Source: Escherichia coli
GTDB taxonomy: Bacteria; Pseudomonadota; Gammaproteobacteria; Enterobacterales; Enterobacteriaceae
NCBI RefSeq assembly: GCF_030384885.1
Contig: NZ_CP128613.1
Direction: 5' to 3' (one strand)
Length of the DNA stretch: 64,000 bases
Positions 57,350 through 60,687 of this stretch are shown in pieces. Below the pieces are notes generated by a model that was not told the DNA's origin, searched no databases, and worked only from the letters and a program-made list of their open reading frames with translations. Position 1 is the stretch's first letter. Each line of letters starts with the position of its first letter. The position numbers and the translations under genes are program-made.

Positions 57350-58249
57350 ATGATTTTCAATATTCAGCGCTACTCGACCCATGACGGCCCCGGTATCCGC
57401 ACGGTCGTTTTTCTTAAAGGCTGTTCACTGGGCTGCCGCTGGTGTCAGAACCCGGAAAGCCGCGCCCGCACGCAGGATCTTCTGTATGACGCACGTCTGT
57501 GCCTGGAAGGCTGCGAGCTGTGCGCTAAGGCCGCGCCGGAAGCGATTGAGCGCGCGCTGAATGGTTTGCTTATTCATCGGGAAAAGTTAACCCCGGAGCA
57601 TCTGACGGCGTTAACCGACTGCTGCCCGACACAGGCGTTAACCGTGTGTGGTGAAGTGAAAAGCGTTGAGGAGATCATGGCGACCGTTCTGCGCGACAAA
57701 CCGTTTTACGATCGCAGCGGCGGCGGCTTAACGCTTTCCGGTGGTGAGCCGTTTATGCAGCCGGAAATGGCGATGGGGCTACTGCAAGCCAGCCACGAAG
57801 CCGGTATTCATACTGCGGTAGAAACCTGTCTGCATGTGCCGTGGAAATACATCGCCCCTTCTCTGCCGTATATCGATCTGTTTCTTGCCGATTTAAAACA
57901 CGTTGCCGACGTGCCGTTTAAACAGTGGACCGACGGTAACGCCGCCAGAGTGCTGGATAACCTGAAAAAACTCGCCGCAGCGGGGAAAAAAATCATCATC
58001 CGCGTGCCGTTGATTCAGGGCTTTAATGCCGATGAAACCTCTGTGAAAGCCATTACCGATTTTGCCGCCGACGAGCTGCACGTCGGCGAAATTCATTTCC
58101 TGCCCTACCACACGCTGGGCATTAACAAATATCACTTACTTAATCTGCCCTATGACGCCCCGGAAAAACCGCTTGATGCGCCAGAACTGCTCGACTTTGC
58201 CCAGCAGTATGCCTGCCAGAAAGGGTTAACCGCGACCTTACGAGGATAA
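57350..58249 (+). CDS. pflE: Glycyl-radical enzyme activating protein PflE/YbiY (radical SAM, 299 aa)
   Basis: Translation [37 protein letters not shown] with CxxxCxxC cluster and a ferredoxin-like Cys insert. Confidence 0.9.
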
Positions 58250-58254
58250 CAACC

Positions 58255-60687
58255 ATGACTACACTGAAACTGGACACGCTCAGCGACCGCATTAAAGCGC
58301 ACAAAAATGCACTGGTGAATATTGTGAAACCGCCGGTCTGTACCGAGCGCGCGCAGCACTATACCGAGATGTATCAACAACATCTCGATAAGCCGATCCC
58401 GGTACGTCGCGCTCTGGCGCTGGCCCATCACCTGGCGAATCGCACTATTTGGATCAAGCACGATGAGTTGATCATCGGCAACCAGGCCAGCGAAGTTCGC
58501 GCCGCGCCGATCTTCCCGGAATATACCGTCTCCTGGATCGAAAAAGAGATTGATGATCTGGCGGATCGTCCGGGTGCAGGTTTTGCGGTGAGCGAAGAGA
58601 ACAAACGCGTTCTGCATGAAGTGTGCCCGTGGTGGCGCGGTCAGACGGTACAGGATCGCTGCTATGGCATGTTTACCGATGAGCAAAAAGGCCTGCTGGC
58701 GACCGGTATCATTAAAGCGGAAGGTAATATGACCTCCGGCGATGCGCACCTGGCGGTCAATTTCCCACTGTTGCTGGAAAAAGGGCTTGATGGTTTGCGC
58801 GAGAAAGTGGCGGAGCGCCGCTCGCGTATTAACCTGACCGTGCTGGAAGATCTGCACGGCGAGCAGTTCCTGAAAGCGATTGATATCGTGCTGGTGGCGG
58901 TCAGTGAACATATTGAACGTTTCGCTGCCCTGGCGCGTGAAATGGCCGCTACCGAACCCCGCGAAAGCCGTCGCGATGAACTGCGGGCGATGGCCGAAAA
59001 CTGCGACCTTATCGCCCACCAGCCGCCGCAGACTTTCTGGCAGGCGCTGCAACTGTGCTACTTCATCCAGTTGATTTTGCAGATCGAATCCAACGGACAC
59101 TCGGTATCGTTTGGTCGTATGGACCAGTATCTCTACCCGTACTATCGCCGCGACGTTGAACTGAACCAGACGCTGGATCGCGAACACGCCATCGAGATGC
59201 TACATAGCTGCTGGCTGAAACTGCTGGAAGTGAACAAGATCCGCTCCGGCTCGCACTCAAAAGCCTCTGCGGGAAGTCCGCTGTATCAGAACGTCACCAT
59301 TGGCGGGCAAAATCTGGTTGATGGTCAGCCGATGGACGCGGTGAATCCACTCTCTTACGCAATCCTCGAATCTTGCGGCCGCCTGCGTTCCACTCAGCCG
59401 AACCTCAGCGTGCGCTACCACGCGGGAATGAGTAACGATTTCCTCGATGCCTGCGTACAGGTGATTCGTTGCGGCTTCGGGATGCCCGCGTTCAACAACG
59501 ACGAAATCGTCATCCCGGAATTTATTAAACTCGGTATTGAACCGCAGGACGCTTACGACTACGCGGCGATTGGCTGTATCGAAACCGCCGTCGGTGGCAA
59601 ATGGGGCTATCGCTGCACCGGGATGAGCTTTATCAACTTCGCCCGCGTGATGCTGGCGGCGCTGGAAGGCGGTCGTGATGCCACCAGCGGCAAAGTGTTC
59701 CTGCCACAAGAAAAAGCGTTGTCAGCGGGTAACTTCAACAACTTCGATGAAGTGATGGACGCGTGGGACACGCAAATCCGTTACTACACCCGTAAATCAA
59801 TCGAAATCGAATATGTCGTCGACACCATGCTGGAAGAGAACGTGCACGATATTCTCTGCTCGGCGCTGGTGGATGACTGCATTGAGCGAGCGAAAAGTAT
59901 CAAGCAAGGCGGCGCGAAATATGACTGGGTATCGGGCCTGCAGGTCGGTATTGCCAACCTCGGCAACAGCCTGGCGGCAGTGAAGAAACTGGTGTTTGAA
60001 CAGGGCGCGATTGGTCAGCAACAACTGGCTGCCGCACTGGCGGATGACTTCGACGGCCTGACTCACGAGCAACTGCGTCAGCGGCTGATTAACGGCGCGC
60101 CGAAGTACGGCAACGACGACGATACTGTCGATACGCTGCTGGCTCGCGCTTATCAGACCTATATCGACGAACTGAAACAGTACCATAACCCGCGCTACGG
60201 TCGTGGTCCGGTTGGCGGCAACTATTACGCGGGTACGTCGTCTATCTCCGCTAACGTACCGTTTGGCGCGCAAACTATGGCAACGCCGGACGGGCGTAAA
60301 GCTCACACCCCGCTGGCAGAAGGCGCAAGCCCGGCTTCCGGTACTGATCATCTTGGCCCTACTGCGGTCATTGGCTCGGTGGGTAAACTGCCTACGGCAG
60401 CGATTCTCGGCGGCGTGTTGCTCAACCAGAAACTGAATCCGGCAACGCTGGAGAACGAATCTGACAAGCAGAAACTGATGATCCTGCTACGTACCTTCTT
60501 TGAGGTGCATAAAGGCTGGCATATTCAGTACAACATCGTTTCCCGCGAAACGCTGCTGGAAGCGAAAAAACATCCGGATCAATACCGCGATCTGGTGGTG
60601 CGCGTAGCGGGTTATTCCGCCTTCTTCACTGCGCTCTCTCCAGACGCACAGGACGATATCATCGCCCGTACTGAACATATGCTGTAA
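58255..60687 (+). CDS. pflF: Glycyl-radical enzyme PflF/YbiW, pyruvate formate-lyase-like, substrate unknown (810 aa)
   Basis: Translation MTTLKLDTLSDRIKAHKNALVNIVKPP...; C-terminal glycyl-radical signature VRVAGYSAFF. Confidence 0.9.
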   Translation: MTTLKLDTLSDRIKAHKNALVNIVKPPVCTERAQHYTEMYQQHLDKPIPVRRALALAHHLANRTIWIKHDELIIGNQASEVRAAPIFPEYTVSWIEKEIDDLADRPGAGFAVSEENKRVLHEVCPWWRGQTVQDRCYGMFTDEQKGLLATGIIKAEGNMTSGDAHLAVNFPLLLEKGLDGLREKVAERRSRINLTVLEDLHGEQFLKAIDIVLVAVSEHIERFAALAREMAATEPRESRRDELRAMAENCDLIAHQPPQTFWQALQLCYFIQLILQIESNGHSVSFGRMDQYLYPYYRRDVELNQTLDREHAIEMLHSCWLKLLEVNKIRSGSHSKASAGSPLYQNVTIGGQNLVDGQPMDAVNPLSYAILESCGRLRSTQPNLSVRYHAGMSNDFLDACVQVIRCGFGMPAFNNDEIVIPEFIKLGIEPQDAYDYAAIGCIETAVGGKWGYRCTGMSFINFARVMLAALEGGRDATSGKVFLPQEKALSAGNFNNFDEVMDAWDTQIRYYTRKSIEIEYVVDTMLEENVHDILCSALVDDCIERAKSIKQGGAKYDWVSGLQVGIANLGNSLAAVKKLVFEQGAIGQQQLAAALADDFDGLTHEQLRQRLINGAPKYGNDDDTVDTLLARAYQTYIDELKQYHNPRYGRGPVGGNYYAGTSSISANVPFGAQTMATPDGRKAHTPLAEGASPASGTDHLGPTAVIGSVGKLPTAAILGGVLLNQKLNPATLENESDKQKLMILLRTFFEVHKGWHIQYNIVSRETLLEAKKHPDQYRDLVVRVAGYSAFFTALSPDAQDDIIARTEHML

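Follow-up and report, generated by a model that had tools for sequence, protein, structure and literature searches.

YbiY and YbiW of Escherichia coli as the probable core of the anaerobic 1,5-anhydroglucitol pathway, with a candidate FNR- and YciT-controlled promoter

What does the glycyl-radical enzyme YbiW of Escherichia coli act on, and under which conditions would it be made together with its activase YbiY? Both genes lie in a stretch of 64,000 nucleotides (contig NZ_CP128613.1 of assembly GCF_030384885.1), which is called the window here. A preliminary description of this DNA had picked out positions 57350 to 60687 as an "orphan" pair, pflE and pflF, with a substrate that was not firmly established. 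We propose that ybiY and ybiW form an operon and that, together with the divergent gene fsaA, they very probably make up the core of the anaerobic 1,5-anhydroglucitol (1,5-AG) pathway, with the chemistry and regulation that we infer below. The genes concerned are the following.

56557 to 57219, minus strand: fsaA, fructose-6-phosphate aldolase 1, 220 amino acids (aa) (PF00923; NF009296, 449.9 bits, cutoff 306; RefSeq)
57220 to 57349, no strand: divergent fsaA/ybiY control region, 130 bp (conserved blocks across eight genera)
57350 to 58249, plus strand: ybiY (pflE), glycyl-radical-enzyme activase of the radical S-adenosylmethionine (SAM) type, 299 aa (TIGR02494, PF04055, PF13353, RefSeq)
58255 to 60687, plus strand: ybiW (pflF), glycyl-radical enzyme assigned by orthology as a 1,5-anhydroglucitol-6-phosphate ring-opening C-O lyase, 810 aa (TIGR01774, identity to K-12 YbiW, PMC12441222)
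60827 to 61642, plus strand: ybiV, Cof-type HAD-IIB sugar phosphatase (TIGR00099, 214.5 bits)

The architecture was as described before, with the activase directly upstream of an 810-aa glycyl-radical enzyme that ends in the C-terminal motif RVAGYSAFF. The gap between the stop codon of ybiY and the start of ybiW is 5 bp, and ybiV follows ybiW at a distance of 139 bp. The start of ybiY (MIFNIQRY, position 57350) is the same in RefSeq and in every orthologue, while the mechanical open reading frame opens earlier, at 57323.

The term "orphan" is overtaken by the literature. Section 5.1 of a recent review (PMC12441222), citing Ma et al. (JACS 2024 146:26187, pmid 39283600), summarizes that YbiW cleaves 1,5-anhydroglucitol-6-phosphate (1,5-AG6P) and PflD cleaves 1,5-anhydromannitol-6-phosphate (1,5-AM6P), both giving 1-deoxyfructose-6-phosphate. 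In the same summary, 1,5-AG and 1,5-anhydromannitol are phosphorylated by the phosphotransferase system (PTS), through which 1,5-AG is taken up, the cleavage of 1,5-AG6P by YbiW requires the glycyl radical, and under strictly anaerobic conditions the pathway allows E. coli and many gut bacteria to grow on 1,5-AG (PMC12441222). This route has been termed radical-mediated glycolysis. With a published substrate assignment and, as detailed below, catalytic residues that are kept, the view that the substrate is not firmly established no longer stands. The hint at a sugar-derived substrate that had been read from the neighboring fsaA was well taken, the substrate being 1,5-AG6P. FsaA or FsaB reportedly splits 1-deoxyfructose-6-phosphate into glyceraldehyde-3-phosphate and hydroxyacetone, which GldA is said to reduce to 1,2-propanediol, and crystal structures of substrate complexes have reportedly been obtained. 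We take FsaA to be the second enzyme of the pathway, cleaving the 1-deoxyfructose-6-phosphate released by YbiW.

Does the allele in the window carry out the same reaction? Conversion of 1,5-AG6P is predicted for it by orthology to K-12 YbiW (b0823), with which it shares 804 of 810 residues as well as the chromosomal position and the neighbors (YbiY is identical to its K-12 counterpart, b0824, at 295 of 299 residues). Over its full length it matches the PDB entries 8id7 and 8yjn ("Probable dehydratase YbiW", E. coli) at ~99% identity; the chains of these entries carry two extra differences, E114A and K116A, which the K-12 genome does not encode and which therefore look like engineering of the crystallized construct. 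The six substitutions relative to K-12 (H22N, E184K, T235P, L244R, H474R, and D769E) are conservative or of surface type, and none falls in the Cys loop, the Gly loop, His165, ESNGHS, or any other catalytic motif. Residues 184K, 474R, and 769E are the consensus among orthologues, so that at these three positions K-12 is the exception. At the codon level, 106 differences from K-12 are synonymous and 6 are nonsynonymous, which indicates strong purifying selection on ybiW. The control region has 128 of its 130 bases in common with that of K-12, among them the FNR box and the palindrome described below, and the flanking genes show 93 to 97% nucleotide identity.

These data bear on the alternative that survives best, namely that 1,5-AG6P is a substrate of YbiW while its main physiological substrate, be it in the gut or in this divergent lineage, is another anhydro- or deoxy-sugar phosphate. 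Two substrates, 1,5-AG6P and 1,5-AM6P, are reported in the review's summary (PMC12441222), ybiV and ybiU accompany the locus without an explained role, and the E. coli ybiW locus does not encode the PTS transporter of the pathway. Against this, that summary has E. coli growing on 1,5-AG, YbiW is 87 to 92% conserved across genera, and the six substitutions stand outside the catalytic motifs, three of them being peculiarities of K-12. We consider this alternative improbable.

To place YbiW among the glycyl-radical enzymes, the protein of the window was aligned with glycerol dehydratase from Clostridium butyricum (PDB 1r8w), K-12 PflD, K-12 PflB, and six orthologues (from Yokenella, Kosakonia, Mixta, Yersinia, Brenneria, and Enterobacillus). 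The two radical-bearing elements of YbiW and the aligned positions are listed below.

59572 to 59583, plus strand: Cys loop G440-C441-I442-E443, with the predicted thiyl-radical Cys and general-base Glu (aligned with glycerol dehydratase and PflD)
60601 to 60627, plus strand: glycyl-radical motif RVAGYSAFF, residues 783 to 791, radical glycine G786 (PF01228, alignment)
Radical glycine: G786 in YbiW, G763 in glycerol dehydratase, G741 in PflD, RVSGY motif in PflB
Cys loop: GCIE (G440 to E443) in YbiW, G432-C433-V434-E435 in glycerol dehydratase, G418-C419-V420-E421 in PflD, ACCVS in PflB
His position: H165 in YbiW, H164 in glycerol dehydratase, H156 in PflD, Arg in PflB
Ser motif: ESNGHS (S283) in YbiW, ESNGHS (S282) in glycerol dehydratase, ESNASS (S266) in PflD, SQNGAA in PflB

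Residues G786, C441, E443, H165, and S283 are invariant in all six orthologues, and C441 aligns with C433 of glycerol dehydratase, C419 of PflD, and C420 of PflB (genomic numbering). In glycerol dehydratase, H164 and S282 hydrogen-bond the hydroxyls of the substrate. A single Cys with a Glu at Cys + 2 (GCxE) and no Cys-Cys pair is the pattern that marks the glycyl-radical 1,2-eliminases (glycerol dehydratase, propanediol dehydratase, CutC, HypD, and IslA). PflB has a Cys-Cys pair and lacks the Glu, so that on sequence grounds YbiW is a radical 1,2-eliminase of the dehydratase type and not a formate acetyltransferase. The comparison with characterized glycyl-radical enzymes that had been proposed for this protein thus gave the residue set of a dehydratase (GCIE, H165, S283, and G786) and not that of pyruvate formate-lyase (PFL).

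Family models are in line with this placement. YbiW contains PF02901 (PFL-like, E value of 2e-208) and PF01228 (Gly_radical, E value of 1.6e-32), and in NCBIfam 20.0 the subfamily model TIGR01774 was the sole one that it passed (1400 bits, cutoff 678). It fell below the cutoffs of the equivalog models for PflD (NF007437, 577 bits against 1109), HypD (NF043068, 527 against 1100), and CutC (TIGR04394, 461 against 1050), and NCBIfam 20.0 holds no equivalog model for YbiW itself. Identity is 38.8% to PflD and 37.4% to glycerol dehydratase, PflD being no closer to YbiW than either of them is to glycerol dehydratase. Several basic residues are common to YbiW and PflD and absent from glycerol dehydratase (K97, R118, K555, R608, R610, and K740); the idea that they bind phosphate is too speculative and was not used as evidence.

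PflD and its activase PflC are a close functional parallel. The E. coli enzyme for 1,5-AM6P (PDB 8yjo) shares with YbiW the reaction type and the product, as summarized in PMC12441222, and also the GCxE loop, the His, Ser, and Gly motifs, and the arrangement of an enzyme-activase pair opposite a divergent aldolase of the fructose-6-phosphate aldolase type. In the K-12 PflD cluster (locus L014), gldA-fsaB-ptsA is divergent from frwC-frwB-pflD-pflC-frwD, so that the aldolase stands opposite the enzyme as it does at ybiW. The PflD cluster differs in carrying its own PTS components and gldA, the gene of the propanediol dehydrogenase, both of which the ybiW locus lacks, and the enzyme in having ESNASS where YbiW has ESNGHS.

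The partnership with the aldolase is conserved well beyond E. coli. Gene context was retrieved from seven other genera (Klebsiella-like loci L004 to L006, Yokenella, Mixta, Yersinia, Brenneria, Enterobacillus, and Kosakonia), and fsaA is divergent from ybiY-ybiW in 6/7 of them, in the midst of unrelated flanks. In Mixta, a gene for a glucose-family PTS EIIBCA protein is located ~3 kb downstream of ybiW (locus L009, position 10667 up to the locus end).

This context also bears on a second alternative, in which YbiW is a small-polyol dehydratase acting on glycerol or propanediol and its link to 1,5-AG is secondary. The B12-independent glycerol dehydratase 1r8w is the closest PDB homologue with another characterized function (E value of 4.5e-164, 37% identity), and the two enzymes have the same set of catalytic residues (Cys, Glu, His, Ser, and Gly). 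However, Asp447 of glycerol dehydratase is replaced in YbiW by Gly456, beside a two-residue insertion, the conserved partner in the sampled ybiW loci is an aldolase of the fructose-6-phosphate type rather than an aldehyde dehydrogenase or reductase, no microcompartment genes were found in these loci, and 1,5-AG6P is the substrate given in the summary of PMC12441222. We regard this alternative as very improbable; YbiW is reported to be robustly active on 1,5-AG6P and inactive on glycerol and 1,2-propanediol. Weakest of all, and hardly credible, is the idea that YbiW is a pyruvate formate-lyase (formate C-acetyltransferase) backing up PflB and TdcE, which follows the K-12 label "putative pyruvate formate lyase," the many source names reading "formate C-acetyltransferase," and the count of four E. 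coli formate acetyltransferases in PMC9055928, where YbiW is included following annotation, and which is contradicted by the GCIE loop (a single Cys and a Glu, where the mechanism needs the Cys-Cys pair seen in ACCVS of PflB), by ESNGHS and His165 being motifs of the dehydratase and not of the PFL type, by a score of 162.4 bits against the 994.2 required by the PFL model TIGR01255, and by the different reaction summarized in PMC12441222.

The activase is of the type expected for such an enzyme. YbiY combines the domains PF04055 (Radical_SAM) and PF13353 (Fer4_12) and passes TIGR02494, the model of the PFLE_PFLC subfamily of activases, with 366.8 bits (cutoff 174.35); together with G786 and C441 of YbiW, these features bear out the identification of the pair as a glycyl-radical enzyme and its activase. 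Two cysteine regions were delimited.

57422 to 57445, plus strand: CX3CX2C radical-SAM [4Fe-4S] motif CSLGCRWC, C25/C29/C32 (invariant in seven orthologues and PflC)
57500 to 57649, plus strand: auxiliary Cys region, with CLEGCELC (C51/C55/C58, positions 57500 to 57523) followed by C91, C92, and C100 (alignment)

None of the seven orthologues, nor PflC, departs from YbiY at the cysteines from C25 to C58 or at C92. C91 is found in 7/7 orthologues and falls in a gap in PflC, and C100 is found in 6/7 orthologues. The region is missing from activases of the PflA type (PflA has 246 aa). The CxxxCxxC motif that had been noted before is therefore present, as are the extra cysteines, with one small reservation: the insertion contains no CX2CX2CX3C motif and, with only six cysteines, differs from the canonical ferredoxin insert, which has two of them. 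Six auxiliary cysteines would be enough ligands for one cluster and less clearly so for two.

A mechanism can be proposed on the model of those of glycerol dehydratase, propanediol dehydratase, and CutC. The [4Fe-4S] cluster held by the CX3CX2C motif of YbiY would reductively cleave SAM, and the resulting 5'-deoxyadenosyl radical would take a hydrogen from G786 to leave the glycyl radical, which would then be transferred to C441. The thiyl radical at C441 would abstract the C2 hydrogen of 1,5-AG6P while E443 deprotonates the C2 hydroxyl, and the ketyl radical thus formed would expel the ring oxygen from C1, opening the pyranoid ring and leaving at C1 a radical in conjugation with the ketone newly formed at C2. 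This radical would regain a hydrogen from the thiol of C441 to give the 1-deoxy-2-ketose. In this scheme, the opening of 1,5-AG6P may be seen as an ether-cleaving form of diol dehydration in which the ring ether oxygen of a phosphorylated C6 anhydro-sugar takes the place of the hydroxyl lost by the substrate of glycerol dehydratase, which would explain why the dehydratase residue set is retained. PflB and PflA have in common with YbiW and YbiY the overall PFL-like fold (PF02901), the RVxGY glycyl motif, and, as predicted for ybiYW below, anaerobic control through FNR; in contrast, PflB catalyzes a C-C cleavage with coenzyme A and not a C-O elimination.

When would the operon be expressed? Three elements stand out in the control region between fsaA and ybiY.

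57283 to 57296, plus strand: FNR box TTGAC-GCAC-ATCAA (9/10 match to TTGAT-N4-ATCAA)
57300 to 57315, no strand: palindrome ACTTTC-ATTC-GAAAGT, candidate YciT operator in the -35/spacer region (conservation; exact match unique in the window)
57319 to 57324, plus strand: -10-like hexamer TTTAAT (kept in 6/8 genera; TCAAAT in Mixta and TGTAAT in Enterobacillus)

The FNR box is the sole match to TTGAYN4ATCAA in the 64-kb window, and its half-sites TTGAY/RTCAA are kept, with a variable spacer, in 7/8 genera, in each of which they are the sole such match per 12.4-kb locus. The box is the reverse complement of TTGATGTGCGTCAA, the site under the FNR peak "ybiY/fsaA" of Myers 2013. Tables S5, S6, and S9 of that study place a peak from chromatin immunoprecipitation (ChIP) with sequencing (and also from ChIP-chip) on this box, with ybiY as the estimated target, and list it among the peaks without an FNR-dependent change of expression in glucose medium. 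We found the link between ybiY and FNR in these supplementary tables and not in the main texts that were searched. From coordinates, the center of the box is 29.5 bp from TTTAAT, a spacing that would suit a class II FNR promoter whose site is at -41.5.

The palindrome, whose center lies 19 bp from that of the FNR box, is conserved as well: its core CTTTCWTTCGAAA is invariant in 8/8 genera, and the next base is G in 7/8 (A in Brenneria). According to the Reg-Seq preprint, the start site of ybiY is active in anaerobic growth and in one replicate of glucose plus ampicillin, the DeoR-family protein YciT is enriched at a ybiY site that overlaps the RNA polymerase footprint, and the footprint of an unassigned activator lies ~15 bp upstream of the YciT site. 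A ChIP-exo report gives YciT peaks at fsaA, ybiY, and ybiV. We infer that ACTTTCATTCGAAAGT, at the palindrome, is a candidate for the sequence protected by YciT. An activator at the FNR box and a repressor at the palindrome fit the Reg-Seq data if the predicted start site in the preprint is offset by ~20 bp. Genes of the DeoR family adjoin the cluster in Mixta, Yersinia, and Brenneria, and with 59 to 65% identity to YciT and 22 to 27% to DeoR (the two E. coli paralogues compared), their products are likely YciT orthologues.

Put together, ybiYW would have a class II FNR-activated promoter that is repressed by YciT at the adjacent palindrome, and in this model, the simplest one, its expression would need both anaerobiosis and an inducer derived from the substrate. 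The full version of this model, a two-input AND gate in which FNR acts at -41.5 and YciT on ACTTTC-N4-GAAAGT is released by 1,5-AG6P or 1-deoxyfructose-6-phosphate, is offered tentatively, as a possibility that we would not yet call probable.

Several points weigh against our reading, in its enzymatic as well as its regulatory part. The assignment of 1,5-AG6P draws on the summary in a review (PMC12441222) and on PDB entries, and our comparison covered catalytic motifs. At one position of the pocket, Gly456 of YbiW stands where not only glycerol dehydratase but also PflD (Asp433) has an Asp, and the radical steps of YbiW are carried over from other enzymes. Of the sampled genera, Kosakonia alone has no fsaA next to the cluster, and the FNR box there is degenerate. 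The start site behind the position of ~-41.5 and the class II geometry is predicted rather than mapped, the palindrome would be assigned to YciT through ChIP-exo and Reg-Seq, and the inducer (substrate-derived, or a sugar phosphate of the pathway) is hypothetical. A search for the palindrome upstream of ybiV and in the rest of the window returned chance-level matches with three mismatches, none of them near ybiV; as ybiV is a ChIP-exo target of YciT, the link between the palindrome and YciT is uncorroborated by that route.

The Kosakonia locus (L008, 3975 to 4096) keeps ybiY-ybiW-ybiV-ybiU and combines a degenerate FNR box, TCGATTTTCATCAC, with an intact palindrome and an intact -10 hexamer, suggesting that there repressor control outlasts FNR control. 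On the fsaA side, a conserved AGTATA/ACTATC block is found ~28.5 bp from the center of the FNR box, with a -10-like hexamer GATAGT on the minus strand (57256 to 57261), and a single FNR dimer may be placed for both divergent promoters, fsaA and ybiY; Myers 2013 gave the peak to ybiY alone. Table S5 of Myers 2013 has FNR peaks at six more promoters of genes in the window, hcp, aqpZ/ybjD, ybjN, rimO/bssR, pdeI (= yliE), and ldtB (= ybiS)/ybiT; the 64-kb region is unusually rich in FNR-bound sites, of which the strict TTGAYN4ATCAA pattern matches that of ybiY alone. A generic scan for promoters and terminators between 56400 and 61900 gave nothing above the expectation from shuffled sequence, and its one promoter hit on the plus strand, which overlaps the start codon of ybiY, was dropped in favor of the conserved TTTAAT. 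We also considered by eye whether a CRP site (TGTGA-N6-TCACA) lies between fsaA and ybiY and rejected it, the conserved half-sites TTGA/TCAA being of the FNR type.

Downstream of the operon, one structural element was detected.

60693 to 60722, plus strand: GC-rich hairpin with a 13-bp perfect stem, 5 nucleotides past the stop codon of ybiW (folding energy of -24.4 kcal/mol, z-score of -6.5, 0 of 200 shuffles equally stable)

The terminator scan did not call this hairpin. With no U-tract after it on either strand, it does not qualify as a canonical intrinsic terminator; more probably it stabilizes the 3' end or terminates weakly, and it may partly insulate ybiV. The latter gene follows ybiW in E. 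coli, the Klebsiella-like loci, Yokenella, and Kosakonia, and is not downstream of ybiW in the loci from Yersinia, Brenneria, Mixta, and Enterobacillus. In the Klebsiella-like loci, Yokenella, Kosakonia, and K-12, the cluster is accompanied by both ybiV and ybiU (Gig2-like/DUF1479), and ybiU-like genes stand beside it in the Klebsiella-like loci, Yokenella, Kosakonia, and Mixta. We treat ybiV as a co-located accessory gene that may have a putative role in the pathway. More loosely, YbiV could dephosphorylate 1,5-AG6P that can no longer be metabolized once oxygen inactivates YbiW, as a bacterial counterpart of human G6PC3.

The gene ybiU is a variable accessory gene of the locus. In K-12 it is located between ybiV and ybiT (locus L002, 4797 to 6062), whereas the strain of the window lacks it and has in its place, at 61643 to 61841, a gap of 199 bp resembling repetitive extragenic palindromic (REP) sequence. 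The ybiV-ybiT junction without ybiU occurs in 1052 of 5426 E. coli genomes. The sole match of an Rfam scan was REP derived and lies outside the operon, in the gap between moeB and fsaA (56391 to 56468, minus strand; naRNA4, RF02564, 74 bits), a nucleoid-associated RNA.

The ybiY-ybiW region itself was found in 5424 of 5426 complete E. coli genomes. Positions 57000 to 61000 are 100% identical in DNA to the chromosome of E. coli 2013C-4282, where fsa, ybiY, ybiW, and ybiV are annotated. K-12 has the same order as the window, with fsaA divergent and ybiV downstream, but differs by ~4.6% in DNA, mostly at synonymous positions. The two parts of the window that we compared (20000 to 24000 and 57000 to 61000) are 100% identical to strain 2013C-4282 but only 90 to 95% identical to ~80 to 95% of complete E. 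coli genomes, which points to a divergent Escherichia lineage and accounts for the distance to K-12; individual genes of the window are 93 to 98% identical to those of K-12, and proteins such as YbiW are 99% conserved. In one NCBI contig, a 1047-aa gene call (protein P0008, 99% identity to YbiW) joins PFL-like, HAD (YbiV-type), and Gly_radical domains and is probably a frameshift or annotation artifact that fuses ybiW and ybiV. Elsewhere in the window (~13954 to 15755, minus strand), the RefSeq record of the matching strain has a frameshifted pseudogene of a pentapeptide-repeat protein.

The enzyme, its substrate 1,5-AG6P, the structures, and the FNR binding site are thus already known from publications, and ybiY-ybiW is best described as an "orphan" that the literature has resolved and whose annotation trails publication, rather than as a discovery to pursue. 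RefSeq still has "glycyl radical protein," most names of orthologues are generic or wrongly read "formate C-acetyltransferase," and a bioRxiv preprint (latest version 2026) still calls ybiYW functionally unannotated. We found no publication with a combined model of FNR and YciT control for ybiYW. What is modestly new is that the published FNR ChIP, YciT ChIP-exo, and Reg-Seq data fit, together with the comparative evidence (the conservation of box and palindrome and, in three genera, the linkage of yciT-like genes to the cluster), a single promoter model that can be tested. If the AND gate is true, it would explain why FNR is bound but "silent" at ybiY in Myers 2013, it would name the unassigned activator of Reg-Seq as FNR, and it would make YciT a dedicated regulator of the anhydroglucitol pathway.

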